Part shown: positions 7,791 to 27,026 of the stretch, piece by piece
How the letters are laid out: each line of letters starts with the position of its first letter
How positions within the stretch are numbered: position 1 is the first letter of the stretch
DNA from: a virus
Length of the DNA: 45,252 bases
Strand: one strand, 5' to 3'
IMG/VR virus record: IMGVR_UViG_3300027852_000010
The notes under the pieces: model-generated
Told to the model about the DNA's origin: nothing
What the model saw: only the letters and a program-made list of their open reading frames with translations
The model's database searches: none
Program-made: the position numbers and the translations under genes

Positions 7791-9011
7791 TTATTCACCT
7801 CCTTTGTTTGATTTTTGAACACAGTCATCAGGTTTATAGATTATTATAGTCTTCCCACGGGAACTTGAGACTGTATCTATAAAATCTGCTGTCTTTAAAG
7901 CTTGTAAGTATTCATCTAAATCTCCTTCACTCATATACATTAGAAATTCCTTCATTAATATATCCTTAGATACCTCCTCATTTATTGCAATAAAGTGCAT
8001 TAGACGTTTGAGATTTTCTGCCTTACTAAACTCCCCTGCATACTGAAAAGTTCTTGGCATTTTTACCTCAGTTTCTTCTAAGAAACGTATAGATTCTTTT
8101 AAGTGATCTTCTGTAATAATCATATCATCTGACTCAGCTGCAGACATTACCATGCTGAGTTTAAATAGATGTGTAGGACGTCTTTCCCAGTAATTCCCAA
8201 AGTGAATAGGATCAAGAGTGCTTTCTTCTGGATAGTTTCCATACCAATCTGACCAATATTGTAGAAAACCTTTAGTAACTTTAAAGTCCCCTCGTAGTGA
8301 TCTAATCTTTGTAAGATCCTCAATAAGATCTTTTTCTAAAGCTATTCCCTCTTCTGAGAGAGTGAAGAATGGACATACTATTCGCTTCTTTATTCTCTCT
8401 TCATATATAAAGATGATCCTACTTGTAAGACCTATTCCAATTGTTTCAGTTGACATTGTTTCTTTAATCTGATTAGGAGTTGTCGCCCCAATGAGAGTTA
8501 GGAAAACCCCTATAACTTCTTCTACATCTCTTGATATAGTTTCATATCGGAAGAGATCTAAGCAGTCATAGAAGTTACAGAGATTTGAAATTAACTCTTT
8601 GTTAGCAAAGCCTAGGAAGACTGCCAGTTCTGGAGAGAATGCTGTAACAGATGAGTGACTTTCAAAATAGCCTTCCTCAGAAGATTCCTCTGTATAAGTA
8701 CTCTCACTCATTCTTCTAATCAGAGCTTGAAGAGATGTAGTGTCACTGATAAGAGATATATTCATCTTATCAATAAACTTCCGAGCGAAAGCCATCGCAG
8801 TTCCTTTACGAGCTCTTCCTGGAGGAGCTACTAAAACCAGATAAAAGTTAGGATAGAAAACTAATGATCCCCAGTTTAATCTGCATTTTCTCTGAAGTGC
8901 TGAAGATATGACAGATACTCCCATCCATTCTTGAAATTTTGTAGGAGGCTCTGAATCATGACAATAGTGTACGTAACTTTTAAGCCAGTTTTTACAGAGT
9001 CTCTTAGACAT
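7791..9011 (-). CDS. Putative P-loop NTPase, DUF3987/D5-like replicative helicase candidate
   Basis: Motifs read: NFYLVLVAPPGRARKGTAM (deviant Walker A) and SRIIFIYEE (Walker B-like). The start overlaps the polymerase stop by 8 nt. Confidence 0.5.
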   Translation of the reverse strand: MSKRLCKNWLKSYVHYCHDSEPPTKFQEWMGVSVISSALQRKCRLNWGSLVFYPNFYLVLVAPPGRARKGTAMAFARKFIDKMNISLISDTTSLQALIRRMSESTYTEESSEEGYFESHSSVTAFSPELAVFLGFANKELISNLCNFYDCLDLFRYETISRDVEEVIGVFLTLIGATTPNQIKETMSTETIGIGLTSRIIFIYEERIKKRIVCPFFTLSEEGIALEKDLIEDLTKIRSLRGDFKVTKGFLQYWSDWYGNYPEESTLDPIHFGNYWERRPTHLFKLSMVMSAAESDDMIITEDHLKESIRFLEETEVKMPRTFQYAGEFSKAENLKRLMHFIAINEEVSKDILMKEFLMYMSEGDLDEYLQALKTADFIDTVSSSRGKTIIIYKPDDCVQKSNKGGE

Positions 9012-21664: not shown

Positions 21665-23677
21665 TTAGAAATTGATTTTAATAGTTCTTGAAAAATCTCC
21701 CCTGACTACACATAATATAGAGTTTTTTTGCGTAGAAGAGAATCCAAGCCCACTAAGTTGTTTAGAACTTTCTTTTACCGACATCTTAGATCCTAAGACT
21801 TCAAATACTTTTCTATGTTCCAGAAGATCTTCTTTTAAAAACTCATTGAAGAATCCTCTTACTTGCTTATCTGTCTTACATTTATTTAAGATAAAGAAAT
21901 AGTGTTTGTTTCCTGTGGCTTCTCCCCAATGATTAGGTGAGTTCATAATCATATTTACTTTATGAAAACTTCCTGTTGGTATATTCCAGATATCTTTATC
22001 TTTAGAAATACTCGGTAAAGTTGATAAAAATCTTATTCCATTCTTTCTAGTAAACTCAAAGTTAGCCACTTTAACTTTTTCTTTAACCTTTCTGTTATAG
22101 TTAAAAAAAGTTGACTTTCCCTCATAAGATAGCTCAATCTCAAATCCTGTATCTATATGCTCTCTTAACGTATAGTTAACTACAAAAATCTCATAAATTC
22201 CTTCAATCATTCTATTCTTATCTGTCCAAGCAATATTTTCTACTGCATTTCTAGAAGTTTTAGGGCCGTTAGGAGTTACATTCATATCTACATCAAGATA
22301 ACCAGTTGTTTTAGTATTTTTCCTGTTATCAAAGAATATATGATGACCTCCTTCTGGTTCTTTGATATGAAGATCAAGATCATCATAATTATACCATGCT
22401 AATGAACATCTGAGAATTGCATCTACATTCCCTCCAGCTTTCTTAACCTTTGCTTTAATAGAATCTGTTACATCTCCATTATAAGTCCATGAGAAGTTAT
22501 TATTCCATTTAAAGATATTTGAGGTATTAGGAGTTTCTGAAGTGATGAGACTCATAAGATTCTTTTCATGACGATTCTCAAAGAAGATTTTAATTTCTTC
22601 TGCTTTTGGCAGGATATCTTTAATGAAAGTTTGAATACTTACATTCTCTACATTATTTAGATTCTTAAACTTTTCAGGAGTATCTTCTACTAACTGATCA
22701 AAGATATTTTCTGATTGATAGGAAGGATTATTTGTAAAGAGAATATTATTTACTGAAATATCTGACTGAACTGCGAATCTTCGATGAAGTGCTGATTCAA
22801 TCCCAAGTTTTTTGATCTGCTTCTCTGCTTTTCGTACCATATCTTTAGTAATAATGGCGGAGGAGCGCTTATAATTAGTAGGAGCTACTTTAGATTCAAA
22901 CATCTGAACAGCATTATCTAAACTTACCCCTGTTGAGATATCTGATATGAGAGTTCCTATGACAGTATTTCTAAACTTAGCAATACTTTTTAATTTCTTA
23001 GAAACTTGCCAACAATAGTTATCCTTATCAGAAATTTCTATTAAGTCATATTCATTCTTACACTTAAGAAATAACTCAACTACTTTCTTATGCTCTGCTC
23101 CTCGATATATTGAGTTTTGATTTATAAGATCCAGAGCGGTATTAATAGCTTCTGTTGAGAATTCTTTTAGACTTCTTTCAAATACATTCTTATTACTAAT
23201 ATCATTTGAGATCTGAGTGCCGATAGAATTACTTTGCAGTACAAATCTTTTAGGTAGTTTTAAAAAGAAGTGATCCCAATAAATATGCTTACCATCTTCT
23301 AAGAACTGTATATCATTATCAGCTCCCAGCTGGTCTTCAAAATGATAGAATGGTGAGATAATCTTTGCTGACTTAACTAATTTTGCAAGAGCATTTGCAA
23401 CTGGTTGATATCTTCCACCAACATCTATATCCCAGATACTGATCAGCTTATTATCTCTAATTCCTACCATATTACCACAAGTTCTGATAAATGATTTGCA
23501 ACACTCACAGTCATGCTCAGTACGAGTTTTATATATCTCATTCGTACCGGGCAGAAAACTTCCGAGATATGTATCCCAGAGATTTTCCTTACTCACATCT
23601 GTCATAAACAGTGCATAAGTTTTCATACTTTCAAACTGTTCATCTACCTTCATCTTAAATTCGCTAAAGTTCTGCAT
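21665..23677 (-). CDS. Large hypothetical protein (670 aa) with an N-terminal HDCECC cluster and a TerD-like C-terminal segment
   Basis: Motif M7 supplies AAAGGGGGA before the ATG. The segment DDLDLHIKEPEGGHHIFFDN...GYLDVDMN resembles a TerD-type beta-sandwich signature, but the resemblance is weak. Confidence 0.8.
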   Translation of the reverse strand: MQNFSEFKMKVDEQFESMKTYALFMTDVSKENLWDTYLGSFLPGTNEIYKTRTEHDCECCKSFIRTCGNMVGIRDNKLISIWDIDVGGRYQPVANALAKLVKSAKIISPFYHFEDQLGADNDIQFLEDGKHIYWDHFFLKLPKRFVLQSNSIGTQISNDISNKNVFERSLKEFSTEAINTALDLINQNSIYRGAEHKKVVELFLKCKNEYDLIEISDKDNYCWQVSKKLKSIAKFRNTVIGTLISDISTGVSLDNAVQMFESKVAPTNYKRSSAIITKDMVRKAEKQIKKLGIESALHRRFAVQSDISVNNILFTNNPSYQSENIFDQLVEDTPEKFKNLNNVENVSIQTFIKDILPKAEEIKIFFENRHEKNLMSLITSETPNTSNIFKWNNNFSWTYNGDVTDSIKAKVKKAGGNVDAILRCSLAWYNYDDLDLHIKEPEGGHHIFFDNRKNTKTTGYLDVDMNVTPNGPKTSRNAVENIAWTDKNRMIEGIYEIFVVNYTLREHIDTGFEIELSYEGKSTFFNYNRKVKEKVKVANFEFTRKNGIRFLSTLPSISKDKDIWNIPTGSFHKVNMIMNSPNHWGEATGNKHYFFILNKCKTDKQVRGFFNEFLKEDLLEHRKVFEVLGSKMSVKESSKQLSGLGFSSTQKNSILCVVRGDFSRTIKINF

Positions 23678-23709: not shown

Positions 23710-24153
23710 TTATAAGTATCTACTGGCAGCTAAGGATTGATAATAGAATGCGTGCAGAAATCCTATACTATAATCTTTCCCAATCTTCTGCATATGCCAT
23801 GCCCAGATAGCTCTTCCACTTCTTCCATTTCCATCTGTAAATGGATGTAAAGATTCATATTTATTATAAAGTTCAAAAGAAGTTAAGTCTGTTTGGTTTA
23901 GAAGATTTTTAACCAATTCTGCCATATTAGGATTTCCATAAGGTGGGATATAATCTCCTACCCGAATATTCATTCCTATCTTATCTCGAAGAACTGCCCC
24001 TGGTTGATAGATATCTACGAATTGCTTTAGATCGTCTAATGTGATTATAGGTAGAGATACAAAACGTAAATGTTCTAAAATTTCTAAATGCTTAGGAGGT
24101 CTTATAATTCCATCAATCTCATTACTTTCCTTTATAAAAGCTTCTACTCTCAT
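23710..24153 (-). CDS. fic: Fic-domain protein (147 aa), putative AMP-transferase
   Basis: Canonical Fic motif HPFTDGNGRSGR. ATG 24153 is preceded by GGAGATTAT. The track's longer ORF to 24249 would read through motif M8 and a microsatellite. Confidence 0.85.
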   Translation of the reverse strand: MRVEAFIKESNEIDGIIRPPKHLEILEHLRFVSLPIITLDDLKQFVDIYQPGAVLRDKIGMNIRVGDYIPPYGNPNMAELVKNLLNQTDLTSFELYNKYESLHPFTDGNGRSGRAIWAWHMQKIGKDYSIGFLHAFYYQSLAASRYL

Positions 24154-24170
24154 ATAATCTCCATAAATGT

Positions 24171-24193
24171 CTTTGTTTAAAATTTGAATGTAG
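24171..24193 (-). promoter_or_regulatory. Phage motif copy M8 (CTACATTCAAATTTTAAACAAAG)
   Basis: Read directly. It lies 17 nt upstream of the fic ATG. Confidence 0.8.
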
Positions 24194-24215
24194 TTATGAT
24201 TATGATTATGATTAT
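24194..24215. repeat. (TTATGA)3.7 hexanucleotide microsatellite
   Basis: Read directly. Confidence 0.9.
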
Positions 24216-24361
24216 CTTCCCTGTCGTAGTTCAAGAGCAATCTGATCACGTTTAGATATCTTTTTCAAGAAATACTTGACATCTCCAATCATCCAGGTAT
24301 ATGATATGATTAGATAGCTGAAGACTGAAATAAGTATTAGGCTTTTTATAATTCTTCTCAT
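24212..24361 (-). CDS. Small membrane protein (49 aa, below the ORF-track cutoff)
   Basis: Hand translation gives MRRIIKSLILISVFSYLIISYTWMIGDVKYFLKKISKRDQIALELRQGR. ATGA overlap with the upstream small ORF. Confidence 0.55.
   Translation of the reverse strand: MRRIIKSLILISVFSYLIISYTWMIGDVKYFLKKISKRDQIALELRQGR
24276..24305 (+). promoter_or_regulatory. Sigma70-type promoter P5 (TTGACA-18 nt-TATGAT), antisense to the early operon
   Basis: Read directly: TTGACAtctccaatcatccaggtaTATGATatgatt. It shares the TATGATATGATT block with P3. Confidence 0.45.
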
Positions 24362-24510
24362 AATCCTTTCCTCTTGTTCATCTTAAAGGTTTTACTTCCA
24401 CATCTATGTGAGTAGTGATAACGATTGAGAGTTTTCCCAGTAGTACTTCTAACTTTCTGTGATAATAACCGTGATATAAACGCATATATTGATTTTTGAT
24501 TCTTACTCAT
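24358..24510 (-). CDS. Small basic protein (50 aa, below the ORF-track cutoff)
   Basis: Hand translation gives MSKNQKSIYAFISRLLSQKVRSTTGKTLNRYHYSHRCGSKTFKMNKRKGL. SD GGAGAGAAATAC is present. Confidence 0.55.
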   Translation of the reverse strand: MSKNQKSIYAFISRLLSQKVRSTTGKTLNRYHYSHRCGSKTFKMNKRKGL

Positions 24511-25223: not shown

Positions 25224-25284
25224 AACTTCCTCCATTGCTTATTATTATTATTACCTATAAAACCTATCTCACTTTCATAATCTC

Positions 25285-25313
25285 ATCATATCACAATTAT
25301 CACCAATTGTCAA
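25285..25313 (-). promoter_or_regulatory. Sigma70-type promoter P1: TTGACA-17 nt-TATGAT, with two GTGATA 9-mers in the spacer and -10 region
   Basis: The reverse complement reads TTGACAaTTGGTGATAATTGTGATATGAT. Confidence 0.75.
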
Positions 25314-25370
25314 TAAGATGCGATTCTAAGAGAGTTTTTATCCTCATTATTCGCTCTATTCCATTCCATT

Positions 25371-25394
25371 CTTCATTCATAATCCAAACGTAGG
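25371..25394 (+). promoter_or_regulatory. Phage motif copy M16, diverged and plus-oriented (CTTCATTCATAATCCAAACGTAGG), facing non-coding DNA
   Basis: Read directly. Confidence 0.5.
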
Positions 25395-25431
25395 TATGAT
25401 GACGTAGATCTGATGATGTAGGTATGGATGT
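25390..25431 (+). repeat. Three tandem 14-mers: GTAGGTATGATGAC, GTAGATCTGATGAT and GTAGGTATGGATGT
   Basis: Read directly. Confidence 0.8.
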
Positions 25432-25487
25432 GATCTGAATTCCGCTCAACTATCTTTGGCCCAGAGCTCTGCCTCCCTGATTGGTCT

Positions 25488-25514
25488 TATCACCAATATC
25501 ACCCATATCACCCA
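25488..25514 (-). repeat. Left iteron array: three contiguous 9-mers (TATCACCAA, TATCACCCA, TATCACCCA)
   Basis: Read directly. It is the inverted partner of 25764-25790. Confidence 0.9.
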
Positions 25515-25763
25515 CAGCCCCTCTCTTAGGTACAAATCCATTTAAATGTAGATTTGAGAATCTGTGTTCAATTGGTGAACATAGAGTGAGAGTAGATTCT
25601 CCTTCTTCCTTCCCCTTTTCCTTATATATATCTCTTAATAGGAGAGATAGGGGTTTAAGGGTTTCCTCTTTTATATATATTTCTAAGAACACCTATACCT
25701 ACCTAAGGACACCCTTACCCACCCTCCTGCGTTTGGGCACAATTGCCCCTAGGGGAGGGCCCA

Positions 25764-25790
25764 TGGGTGATACTAGTGATACGGGTGATA
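25764..25790 (+). repeat. Right iteron array: three contiguous 9-mers (TGGGTGATA, CTAGTGATA, CGGGTGATA)
   Basis: Read directly. It lies 249 bp from the left array, in inverted orientation. Confidence 0.9.
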
Positions 25791-25881
25791 CGCATTCATT
25801 CTTCGCTCTCACATCTCTCACCCTCAGCATAGCTCCGCGAGGGCCGGCCGGTAAGGATCAGCTCCGCTCTTCCACTCCGCT

Positions 25882-25904
25882 CTTCATTCACAATTTAAAC
25901 ATAG
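25882..25904 (+). promoter_or_regulatory. Phage motif copy M17, diverged and plus-oriented (CTTCATTCACAATTTAAACATAG), facing the 3' end of a minus-strand gene
   Basis: Read directly. Confidence 0.5.
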
Positions 25905-25968
25905 TTGGCATGTTTCAGACCAATCGCTTACTCATGGAGATCAGGAATATTATTAGTGATTAGTTTAC

Positions 25969-26376
25969 CTAAATCTCATCATCATCTCTATCTGTGATTC
26001 CTGTTCCTGCTCCCCGCTCTGCTTTAAGTGCCTCCAGCAATTCAATTTGCCTATCCAACTCAGCGTCAGTCATAGCGGCACTGGTAGCAAGTGCATTTGC
26101 GGCTTCCTGACTAACCATCACCCTCCAGCTAATTTCCTGCCCGTCATAGGTCTCTTTCAACCTTTTCTCATTCAGCTTTTTCATGCTTGGTCTGGCGCTT
26201 ACTTTCATAGCGTCCCATGCTTTTCTAACAAGCGTCTCAATTGGCATACCTTCAAAATCCACTATCGGGCATATAGCCGGATTCGTCGATTCATCTAACC
26301 GTACGTTAAAATAAGCGCTATGTACCAGATTCTTAATTCTACCTCCAACTATTTCTACCTTATCCCATTTACTCAT
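25969..26376 (-). CDS. Hypothetical protein (135 aa from ATG 26376), GC-richer than the genome background
   Basis: AAGGAGAACTATC precedes ATG 26376 (MSKWDKVEIVGG...). The gene has its own sigma70-type promoter, P2. Confidence 0.75.
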   Translation of the reverse strand: MSKWDKVEIVGGRIKNLVHSAYFNVRLDESTNPAICPIVDFEGMPIETLVRKAWDAMKVSARPSMKKLNEKRLKETYDGQEISWRVMVSQEAANALATSAAMTDAELDRQIELLEALKAERGAGTGITDRDDDEI

Positions 26377-26589
26377 GATAGTTCTCCTTATATCTCTTCT
26401 GCTCCTGCTCTCCATGAGTAAACGATTGACCTAACATTCCGTGTATGTTTAAGGACATGTCACCGTGGCTCACTCCTCACATCGTTACATGTGTCTGGTA
26501 GCGCTTCCCGATGAAAACATACAAACCTTATGACCGGCTAGCTTTCACCCACTCGGTATTTATCAAAGAACCTTCGTAATGTTGATTGC

Positions 26590-26618
26590 ATCATAGCATA
26601 ATTCACCCTAGTTGTCAA
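26590..26618 (-). promoter_or_regulatory. Sigma70-type promoter P2: TTGACA-17 nt-TATGAT
   Basis: The reverse complement reads TTGACAactagggtgaattatgcTATGAT. The spacer carries a GGTGAAT box variant. Confidence 0.7.
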
Positions 26619-26893
26619 ATACATGTATCTATATTCCCATAGATATCACTTATGATGGTTTATATTTCTCTCATAATATGTCTATCCACCGTGATATCCT
26701 ATAATAGGTTAGCTATATATGTAAACCAAAAGGGGGTAGATGGTTCTGAAATTCCCCAAACAACAATACTCACAAAATTTTCTAGAATCCCTAATGCCAC
26801 CATTCATAGGAGCTCTCCCGGGAGGGAGAGAGATCTCTGCAGAAGCCTTTTGGGCCAACTCTTCTATCCCTCTCATTCTTCCTTCAGCTATCT

Positions 26894-26914
26894 GCGTTTA
26901 AATTTTGAATGAAG
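26894..26914 (-). promoter_or_regulatory. Phage motif copy M9 (CTTCATTCAAAATTTAAACGC), about 520 nt upstream of ATG 26376
   Basis: Read directly. Confidence 0.7.
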
Positions 26915-26925
26915 GGCGTGGAATA

Positions 26926-26949
26926 GGAGATCGGGAGATTGGGAGATGT
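26926..26949 (+). repeat. Three tandem 8-mers: GGAGATCG, GGAGATTG and GGAGATGT
   Basis: Read directly. The array lies between motif M9 and promoter P3. Confidence 0.85.
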
Positions 26950-26991
26950 GAGTATGGTTATCTAAAAATTTCAACCATAAAATAATGCTTG

Positions 26992-27020
26992 TTGACAACT
27001 GCTTACAGTTATGATATGAT
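26992..27020 (+). promoter_or_regulatory. Sigma70-type promoter P3: TTGACA-17 nt-TATGAT, ending 6 nt before ATG 27027
   Basis: Read directly: TTGACAactgcttacagttatgaTATGATttaatcATG. Confidence 0.75.
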
Positions 27021-27026
27021 TTAATC

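Follow-up and report, generated by a model that had tools for sequence, protein, structure and literature searches.

The 45,252-nt stretch of phage DNA analyzed here (IMG/VR record IMGVR_UViG_3300027852_000010, hereafter referred to as the window) carries a non-coding pseudo-palindrome of about 300 bp at positions 25488-25790. This element is real and conserved, and it possesses lineage-specific arrays of iterons. It lies in a control region of 1.8 kb (25236-27026) from which two blocks of genes, as well as the GC skew, diverge. The minus-strand genes, extending from about 25.2 kb down to 5.9 kb, encode a family A polymerase, a DUF3987 protein, a ParB-methyltransferase, a Sak4-like protein, an exonuclease, a ligase, and a dCMP deaminase; the plus-strand genes, from 27.0 kb onward, specify a small terminase subunit with a helix-turn-helix (HTH) motif (TerS), the large terminase subunit (TerL), and the portal, capsid, and tail proteins. 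Both blocks converge at about 5.9 kb, a point that splits the circle 44/56 as counted from the element. The sole convincing gene of the control region itself is located on the minus strand and encodes a protein of 135 amino acids (aa).

Arrays, arms and core of the element

Two short arrays of repeats delimit the element. The original prediction for this locus, made from the sequence alone, had described three contiguous 9-mers facing three inverted ones, and both their coordinates and their sequences match exactly. On the plus strand, the left array (25488-25514) reads TATCACCAA, TATCACCCA, and TATCACCCA, and the right array (25764-25790) reads TGGGTGATA, CTAGTGATA, and CGGGTGATA. Each array can be described as three 7-bp boxes with a pitch of 9 bp. 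In the left one, the box is TATCACC followed by a 2-nt spacer on the plus strand, corresponding to GGTGATA on the minus strand; in the right one, the boxes GGTGATA, AGTGATA, and GGTGATA stand on the plus strand and are inverted with respect to those on the left. The pattern GTGATA-N3-GTGATA-N3-GTGATA is present at only two sites of the window, one on each strand, and these are the two arrays; it was absent from all 100 dinucleotide-preserving shuffles of the window. The 7-mer GGTGATA was found 11 times, against 4.3 copies expected, and 7 of the 11 copies are positioned inside or adjoining the element. Outside of it, three plus-strand GTGATA hexamers are clustered at 24415, 24459, and 24471, among small early open reading frames (ORFs).

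The inverted repeat proved to be longer than originally described. It comprises arms of 48 nt (25488-25535 and 25743-25790) that are 75% complementary. The inner extension of the left arm (25515-25535) is a C-rich clamp (CAGCCCCTCTCTTAGG...), whose symmetric partner in the right arm (25743-25763) is the G-rich palindromic clamp CCCCTAGGGGAGGGCCC. Between the arms, the candidate unwinding region at the centre (25598-25680) contains a polypyrimidine tract, a TATATATAT tract (25623-25631), a hairpin with the sequence TATCTCT-taatagg-AGAGATA (25629-25649), and a second TATATATAT tract (25672-25680); these two tracts are two of only four in the window. The features that had been predicted for the stretch between the arrays, i.e., the two TATATATAT tracts, the hairpin, and the palindromes gggcacaattgccc and cccctagggg, are all present, with the exception of ggccggcc, which is located outside the element at 25843-25850.

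An ORF of 160 aa that starts with TTG (25481-25963, plus strand) crosses the element. This ORF has no family match, and in all nine relatives checked the element contains stop codons in every frame of both strands, so that no ORF is conserved. The earlier statement that the region holds no credible ORF hence stands.

Shared layout and switched boxes in related phages

Homologous loci were reached through searches with TerL, the 135-aa protein, and TerS. In eleven relatives, the element is found at the same syntenic position and with the same anatomy; the identity of the 135-aa protein across the relatives that possess the element is about 50-96%. The closest deposited genome is that of Desulfofustis phage LS06-2018-MD01 (hereafter MD01), whose TerL and polymerase are 46% and 43% identical to those of the window; the other loci are referred to by L numbers. 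From left to right, the common order begins with a leftward early sigma-70 promoter, a plus-strand copy of a 19-nt intergenic motif (described below), the left array, the C-rich clamp, and a TTCAA..TGAACGTAGG(TGGGTAG) block. It continues with a centre of (TA)n or A4-6T10-18, CCCACCTACGTTT, the G-rich clamp, the inverted right array, one or two plus-strand motif copies, and the 135-aa gene. Within the core of the relatives, a motif-like GTAGG block is positioned left of the centre and a CCTAC block right of it, and C-run and G-run clamps are found in all of them. While the centres of the relatives consist of (TA)n or A4-6T10-18 runs, that of the window has two 9-nt TA tracts only.

The boxes themselves differ between lineages. 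Written as left/right on the plus strand, the window and L139, L140, L142, L144, and L150 share TATCACC/GGTGATA, with 3 + 3 copies. The corresponding pair is GGTAGT/ACTACC in L135 (4 + 5 copies; this box is also given as GACTACC), TGTTACC/GGTAACA in L149, TGTAACC/GGTTACA in L161 (7 + about 8), TTAACA/TGTTAA in L151 (8 + 6), TTTGTAYG/CRTACAAA in L162, and GTTTTC/GAAAAC in MD01 (5 + 5). The whole box is replaced between lineages, and this occurs in both arms together; the pitch of the arrays in the relatives is 8-9 nt, with 3 to 8 copies per side. At the loci of the relatives, too, the box arrays cluster in the element only. All elements are significantly self-complementary (z 5-9), with a symmetry that is strong in the arms and fades toward the centre. 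Within the TATCACC lineage, the boxes are unchanged in six relatives, and the only invariant columns are the boxes and the GC clamps; the interior is largely unalignable, even where the neighbouring proteins of two phages share 95% identity. Conservation of the boxes in related genomes had been proposed as a check of the prediction: layout and position are kept in eleven relatives, but the sequence of the box changes with the lineage.

A comparison of the two arms bears on whether the boxes are bound by a protein or paired in a helix. Of 126 positions in the 7-nt box cores that were compared across the arms, 118 (94%) are complementary, whereas the 2-nt spacers match at 8 of 35 (23%), which is the level of chance. 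When six elements were combined with RNAalifold, the consensus was reduced to the invariant boxes, the GC block, and one small hairpin; its covariation term was +1.03, and a single pair was compensatory. Rfam yielded no match to the element at its gathering threshold, and at E values up to 1 it returned one chance match to a snoRNA (E 0.7). Since the cores are complementary and the spacers are not beyond chance, and since neither interior covariation nor an Rfam match was observed, the boxes appear to be protein sites rather than a selected RNA or DNA helix. The repetition of identical units in each arm, their variable copy number, and the switching of whole units in both arms point to multiple sites for one sequence-specific protein. 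Such wholesale changes of the box, combined with a varying copy number, suggest iterons that co-evolve with their cognate binding protein. The preference of the original prediction for protein-binding iterons over an RNA helix, derived from a conserved GTGATA core with varying flanks, agrees with these comparative data.

We consider it very improbable that the element encodes a structured RNA, be it a non-coding one or a long hairpin that serves as a leader or processing site, with the arrays as its basal stem and produced by a plus-strand transcript from the motif copy at 25371 or by minus-strand read-through from the 135-aa gene. Both strands fold far beyond their shuffles (plus strand, -106 kcal/mol, z -5.3; minus strand, -120 kcal/mol, z -6.8), a promoter-like motif is directed into the element, there is no terminator between the element and the upstream gene, and the arm positions that are not Watson-Crick pairs favor wobble pairs on the minus strand (92 vs 58). 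However, good folding of both strands is a trivial consequence of the inverted repeat, and the plus strand is rich in C and T, which confounds the wobble bias. Pairing does not account for the repetition of identical units within each arm, and the interior cannot be aligned. A tRNA or tmRNA reading was considered as well and rejected.

Three further loci were rejected as relatives with the same layout: in L125 (TerL 36% identical) and L163, the layout is different or very degenerate, and all that Microcystis phage Mel-JY34 possesses is an inverted repeat of 41 nt that encloses an A-run. Three successive TATCACC-N2 units, sought across IMG/VR, were encountered at 120 unrelated loci; most of these are coding repeats of giant viruses with a period of 9 nt, and none shares DNA with the window or contains the 19-nt motif. 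A DNA search of a phage collection with the element region gave no match.

The element also coincides with irregularities in deposited records. In at least eight relatives, metagenome contigs terminate no more than about 300 bp from it, at scattered positions (L121-L124, L137, L138, L140-L148). One phage is represented by two contig records, possibly assembled from the same reads, and both of them break off at an identical base directly after a T11 run. These breaks probably reflect failures of the assembly at an inverted repeat with a low-complexity centre. In the MD01 annotation (OP947158.1, 42208-43537; L156 3709-5038), several small minus-strand ORFs, one of them labeled as a ligase, are placed over the non-coding element. 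The same ORFs also overlie a plus-strand ORF of 153 aa (L156:3857-4318) that is syntenic with the 135-aa gene and whose product is weakly similar to the 135-aa protein (hhalign E 0.012). These deposited small-ORF calls look spurious.

Promoters, motif copies and proteins around the element

The control region contains three near-identical sigma-70 promoters that are close to the consensus (TTGACA-17-TATGAT after TG), two on the minus strand (26590-26618 and 25285-25313) and one on the plus strand (26992-27020). The promoter at 25285-25313 is predicted to be the early promoter that drives the leftward early genes; its spacer holds an extra GGTGATA box (25298-25304), a feature present in four of the five TATCACC-box lineages. 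The TGTCAAYAAG signature of this promoter is kept in all relatives, including Mel-JY34. At the other end of the control region, the ATG of terS (27027) follows the -10 element of the plus-strand promoter after just 7 nt, and because of this distance the terS mRNA is suggested to be leaderless.

The 135-aa gene (25969-26376, minus strand) is always found directly to the right of the element, and its product is a candidate for the box-binding or initiator protein. Its start (MSKWDK, at 26376) is preceded by an AGGAG ribosome-binding site and is correct instead of that of a 148-aa ORF. The protein has an invariant KKAWDAMKVSARPSMKKL core and no Pfam, PHROG, or PDB match. An inverted repeat (25895-25946 and 26403-26452; 26 nt at 92% plus 20 nt at 80%) flanks the gene, and its 5' and 3' untranslated regions could pair. 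Further repeat pairs are located nearby (25808-25825 with 26935-26952, and 25878-25909 with 26887-26918), and the segment surrounding the motif copy at 25882 resembles a fusion between an inverted version of the motif at 26896 and the leader of the 135-aa gene.

The 19-nt motif CTTCATTCAAAATTTAAAC occurs 14 times in the window, compared to 0.24 copies expected, with starts at 549, 3840, 11516, 13591, 15352, 17846, 21127, 23691, 24175, 25371, 25882, 26896, 32153, and 37600. It mostly occupies the space that separates a stop codon from the following ribosome-binding site; two copies are placed in frame within an ORF of 1814 aa, and the copy at 37600 is on the antisense strand of the late genes. 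The motif is imperfectly palindromic. Its equivalent in MD01 is a perfect 25-bp palindrome, GCTATGTCCCAAATTGGGACATAGC, at nine intergenic sites (L160: 249, 2251, 7688, 15474, 23059, 29970, 37113, 41281, and 42977), one of which flanks the MD01 element. In the window, the copy on the left flank of the element (25371-25389, plus strand) points into it, against the direction of the surrounding minus-strand genes, and the copy on the right flank (25882-25900, plus strand) points away from it. In L139, L141-144, L150, L135, L151, and MD01 as well, the element is bordered by one or two plus-strand copies. Degenerate copies that point to the centre are also present inside the element on the plus strand (25540-25584); they comprise ATTTAAATGTAG (25540-25551) and the small palindrome TGTTCAATTGGTGAACATAG (25565-25584), and their TTCAA..TGAACGTAGG equivalents were seen in L135, L142, L144, L150, and L161. 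On the other side of the centre, the 3' half of the motif has an inverted partner at 25726-25737 (minus strand), which reads CCTGCGTTTGGG on the plus strand and CCCAAACGCAGG on the minus strand; CTACGTTT(AA) occupies the same place in the relatives.

Just upstream of the left array, the original prediction had noted the plus-oriented motif copy at 25371 and three 14-mers, and both are there. The tandem 14-mers (25390-25431) read GTAGGTATGATGAC, GTAGATCTGATGAT, and GTAGGTATGGATGT and have no obvious conservation in the relatives; the GTAGGTATG that they contain is complementary to 25695-25702 within the element. The designation of the 19-nt motif as a phage promoter did not fare equally well, and we regard it as a putative promoter only: the motif is an imperfect palindrome, and no gene for a phage RNA polymerase was found among the window proteins scanned. 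Because of this absence, the motif may instead be bound by a dimeric factor or form an RNA hairpin.

The DUF3987 protein, encoded at 7791-9011 on the minus strand, is a superfamily 6 (SF6), MCM-like helicase and the candidate for a helicase loaded at the element. Members of this group are regarded as MCM-related SF6 replicative helicases with a C-terminal winged HTH (PMC4889955), and helicase activity has been demonstrated for one of them (PMC11724360). The AlphaFold2 model of the window protein has a predicted local distance difference test (pLDDT) score of 87, and its best Foldseek matches are MCM AAA+ helicase subunits (E 2e-10). The C-terminus of the model forms a winged-helix-like unit of the order H-E-H-H-E-E (alpha-beta-alpha-alpha-beta-beta). 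Between relatives, the C-terminal stretch of about 100 aa is only 29-63% identical, compared to 80-96% for the rest of the protein. A winged helix could be linked with a box type in four pairs, and because all four differ, they give no measure of co-variation. Hundreds of homologues of the helicase are encoded on contigs of 44-47 kb in public assemblies; this phage family is therefore abundant, and many of its complete genomes are available for an analysis of co-variation.

Among the other leftward genes, that for a 670-aa protein (21665-23677, minus strand; phrog_1735) encodes a product that shares about 45% identity with its counterparts in Vi1-like, phiRSL1, phiCbK-like, and Alteromonas AD45 phages. 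It is seemingly missing from the MD01 annotation, as judged by size only and not by a sequence search. The gene upstream of it (23710-24249, minus strand) encodes a Fic/DOC-domain protein. As a search query, the 670-aa protein retrieved distant phages only, with no synteny, and sequence searches of the PDB with the 670-aa, 1814-aa, and 406-aa proteins gave no match.

A candidate replication origin and its competitors

We tentatively favor the reading of the element as an origin of bidirectional replication that operates by the logic of the Staphylococcus aureus pathogenicity islands (SaPIs) and of MCM-type helicases, a real possibility that nevertheless stops short of being probable. It is preferred since the layout follows that of SaPI origins and since the phage encodes an MCM-like helicase. 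SaPI origins contain 6-12 iterons of 5-6 bp, half of them on each side of an AT-rich centre and in opposite orientation; they are recognized by a self-loading helicase through its C-terminal winged helix, with one hexamer proposed to load per side, and some SaPI Reps (SaPIbov1 type) are SF6/MCM-like (PMC9371898). The phages described here resemble them in having short, element-specific inverted iterons (3 + 3 to about 8 + 8 boxes of 6-7 bp) on the two sides of a centre, which in the relatives consists of (TA)n or T runs, and in encoding an MCM-like helicase with a predicted C-terminal winged helix. The replication-type proteins of the window comprise, besides this helicase, polymerase A, the ligase, the exonuclease, and the Sak4-like protein. 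The divergence of the two gene blocks and of the GC skew from the control region that holds the element is likewise in keeping with an origin. Unlike in SaPI origins, the boxes are contiguous at a pitch of 8-9 bp, and the core is far longer (about 250 bp), pseudo-palindromic, and furnished with GC clamps and motif copies.

The events at such an origin, from protein binding to melting and helicase loading, together with any role of transcription, are those that we infer from this likeness. The lineage-specific 7-bp boxes (3 + 3 here and up to about 8 per side in relatives) would be bound cooperatively by a phage-encoded specificity protein, for which there are two candidates, namely the neighbouring 135-aa protein and the C-terminal region of the DUF3987 helicase, which varies between relatives. 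Binding would nucleate two oppositely oriented complexes that flank the pseudo-palindromic core of about 250 bp; the (TA)n/T-run centre would then melt, and the DUF3987 helicase would be loaded as two hexamers moving apart. As for the intergenic motif, its plus-strand and internal copies may contribute transcriptional activation or an RNA primer.

Other well-known replicons show parts of the same design. The ori and crr sites of phage P4 possess several octamer type I iterons (TGTTCACC) in both orientations, which are read by the C-terminal winged helix of the alpha primase-helicase; alpha is an SF3 helicase fused to a primase, and the iterons are split over ori and crr, which are 4.5 kb apart. 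The P4 iterons have no sequence homology to the element. In the oriS of herpes simplex virus (HSV), the origins of SV40 and papillomaviruses, and archaeal oriC with its inverted origin recognition boxes, inverted initiator sites flank an AT-rich spacer and lead to the head-to-head loading of two helicase hexamers (MCM in archaea), but these systems belong to unrelated hosts with unrelated proteins, have only 1-2 sites per side instead of contiguous arrays and, in the viral cases, measure 45-65 bp. The primary origin of T7 consists of the phi1.1A/B promoters and an AT-rich tract, and in the same phage the phiOL and phiOR promoters and short-repeat arrays flank the terminal repeat. Orphan promoter-like motifs that lead into or flank a non-coding region with TA-rich tracts, next to the earliest promoters for the host polymerase, are common to T7 and the window. 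However, the T7 origin has no inverted iteron arrays, the terminal short repeats of T7 are direct, and the motif of the window is an imperfect palindrome that may be no promoter. The T7 analogy drawn in the original prediction is consequently less close than presented there: the motif copies at 25371 and 25565-25584 (both plus strand) do point to the centre, but a T7-like RNA polymerase gene was not found among the scanned proteins and the core is not AT-rich overall.

Several observations weigh against an origin. The assignment derives from likeness of architecture, and the position of the element, with the end of a transcription unit on one side and the earliest promoter on the other, would be appropriate for a packaging or terminus site too. 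The predicted AT-rich core of 249 bp was an overstatement: its GC content (0.34-0.55 per 100 nt) is at or above the window average of about 0.36 overall, in contrast to the AT-rich centre of SaPI origins. The centre is only modestly TA-rich, and the least stable 40-80-bp windows of the core reach only the 3rd percentile of the window and are not the least stable DNA of the genome, so that duplex stability is not decisive as evidence for melting. The cumulative GC skew, which had been proposed as a check, has its minimum at about 26900 and not at the element; this is 1.1-1.4 kb to the right, at the switch in gene orientation, and because the minimum follows that switch it provides no independent support for an origin. 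The helicase gene is 16.5 kb away, unlike in SaPIs, where the origin is located directly downstream of rep, and unlike in P4, where it abuts the initiator gene. The putative recognition helix of the DUF3987 winged helix is acidic (SEGDLDEYL) and does not resemble a helix that reads sequence. With respect to the 135-aa protein, its AlphaFold2 model (pLDDT 70) had no PDB match in a fold search and displays no recognizable DNA-binding fold. Neither a primase gene nor one for a phage RNA polymerase was identified, which makes any priming step speculative.

The site could alternatively serve the packaging of DNA, as a pac site or a T7-like concatemer junction whose arrays are bound by TerS rings and whose core is cut by TerL. 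Packaging would then start with the rightward DNA, terS and terL included, and the first DNA to reach the next host would carry the early promoter at 25313. The element is indeed positioned 1.24 kb upstream of terS/terL, at the boundary before the earliest sigma-70 promoter, and a pitch of 8-9 bp approximates the spacing of neighbouring HTH motifs on a TerS ring. In T7, two phage promoters of the same direction and short-repeat arrays flank the terminal repeat. The nearest characterized relatives of TerL are Mu-like headful-type terminases, at only 22-26% identity, the complete relatives assemble as circles or permuted contigs, and the contig breaks described above fall near the element. Repeat sets around a central region would also fit the pacL-pacC-pacR layout of SPP1; there, as in P1 pac with its 4 + 3 hexamers, repeat sets that flank a centre near the terminase genes are bound by the small terminase subunit (PMC6316719). 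Yet these pac sites overlap or abut terS or its promoter, while here a gene and three promoters intervene between the end of the array (25790) and the start of terS (27027). The contig breaks are scattered and located at homopolymer or (TA)n runs and at the inverted repeat, as is the case for assembly artefacts, and the sequence bears no mark of a cut site. The LuxR/GerE-type HTH of TerS has a predicted recognition helix, (T/S)PMMVSNVRNSP, that is identical in the window (box GGTGATA) and in L135 (GACTACC), and TerS is therefore unlikely to read the boxes. We accordingly judge a packaging site to be unlikely, albeit worth serious attention; of the two functions named in the original prediction, candidate origin or pac, likeness of architecture best supports the former and the invariant TerS helix weakens the latter.

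An operator function is somewhat more doubtful still. The arrays would be bound by a small regulator, e.g., one of the ribbon-helix-helix type, and looped together to control the promoter at 25313 and the flanking plus-strand motif copies as a switch between early and late expression. The omega repressor, which binds WATCACW heptads, provides the model, and cooperative binding to short boxes in tandem is a typical trait of MetJ, Arc, and omega-type repressors. The three near-identical promoters and three extended copies of the intergenic motif within 1.8 kb, as well as the extra box in the early-promoter spacer, are in keeping with this. But the arrays overlap neither the early promoter, which is at least 175 bp away, nor the flanking motifs, at a distance of about 90 bp; the early promoters of L135 and L139 have no box, and lineages with other boxes do without it. 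The conserved (TA)n/T-run centre, the GC clamps, and the inverted motif copies are left unexplained, and no candidate repressor was identified among the proteins scanned. A target for a site-specific DNA enzyme is scarcely credible, be it an attP with arm-type sites, a protelomerase target such as N15 telRL, or the remnant of an inverted-repeat mobile element. Inverted short-repeat arrays around a core of about 250 bp do recall the arm-type sites of lambda attP, a long imperfect palindrome with a TA-rich centre recalls sites of telomere resolution, and direct repeats (25344-25393 and 25796-25904) bracket the element. The centre, however, is non-palindromic, and the bracketing repeats are copies of the intergenic motif, placed asymmetrically (130 nt vs 6 nt from the arms), so that they are no target-site duplications. 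The element is fixed at one syntenic site in all relatives, and scans of ORFs with Pfam, PHROGs, or NCBIfam, which did not include several late-region ORFs, revealed no integrase, recombinase, protelomerase, or transposase. A miniature inverted-repeat transposable element was considered and rejected, as were inverted terminal repeats for protein-primed replication, given a family A polymerase and circular contigs.

Origin and packaging site might also be combined in a dual-purpose hub of genome control, to which we give little credence. One box-binding protein would license the loading of the helicase and would also mark the genome for concatemer processing or packaging. The flanking palindromic motif would be required in cis, by analogy with the T7 phiOR junction and with poxvirus telomere-resolution sites, and the switching of boxes between sister lineages might represent a code of replicon identity (incompatibility) among co-infecting relatives.

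The element is of an ordinary kind, found in an unstudied phage family. It probably accounts for the assembly breaks in this group of phages, and it corrects ORF calls in MD01 that look spurious. If it is a pac site or an operator, it is still a well-defined module of protein-DNA recognition from an uncultured phage family. With at least seven box variants at one conserved locus, it offers a natural series for finding the specificity protein through co-variation and for studying how the specificity between an origin and its initiator changes. Should it be an origin, as we favor, it would supply the cis-acting partner of the DUF3987/MCM-like helicases, which are widespread in phages and whose origins and loading are essentially uncharacterized.

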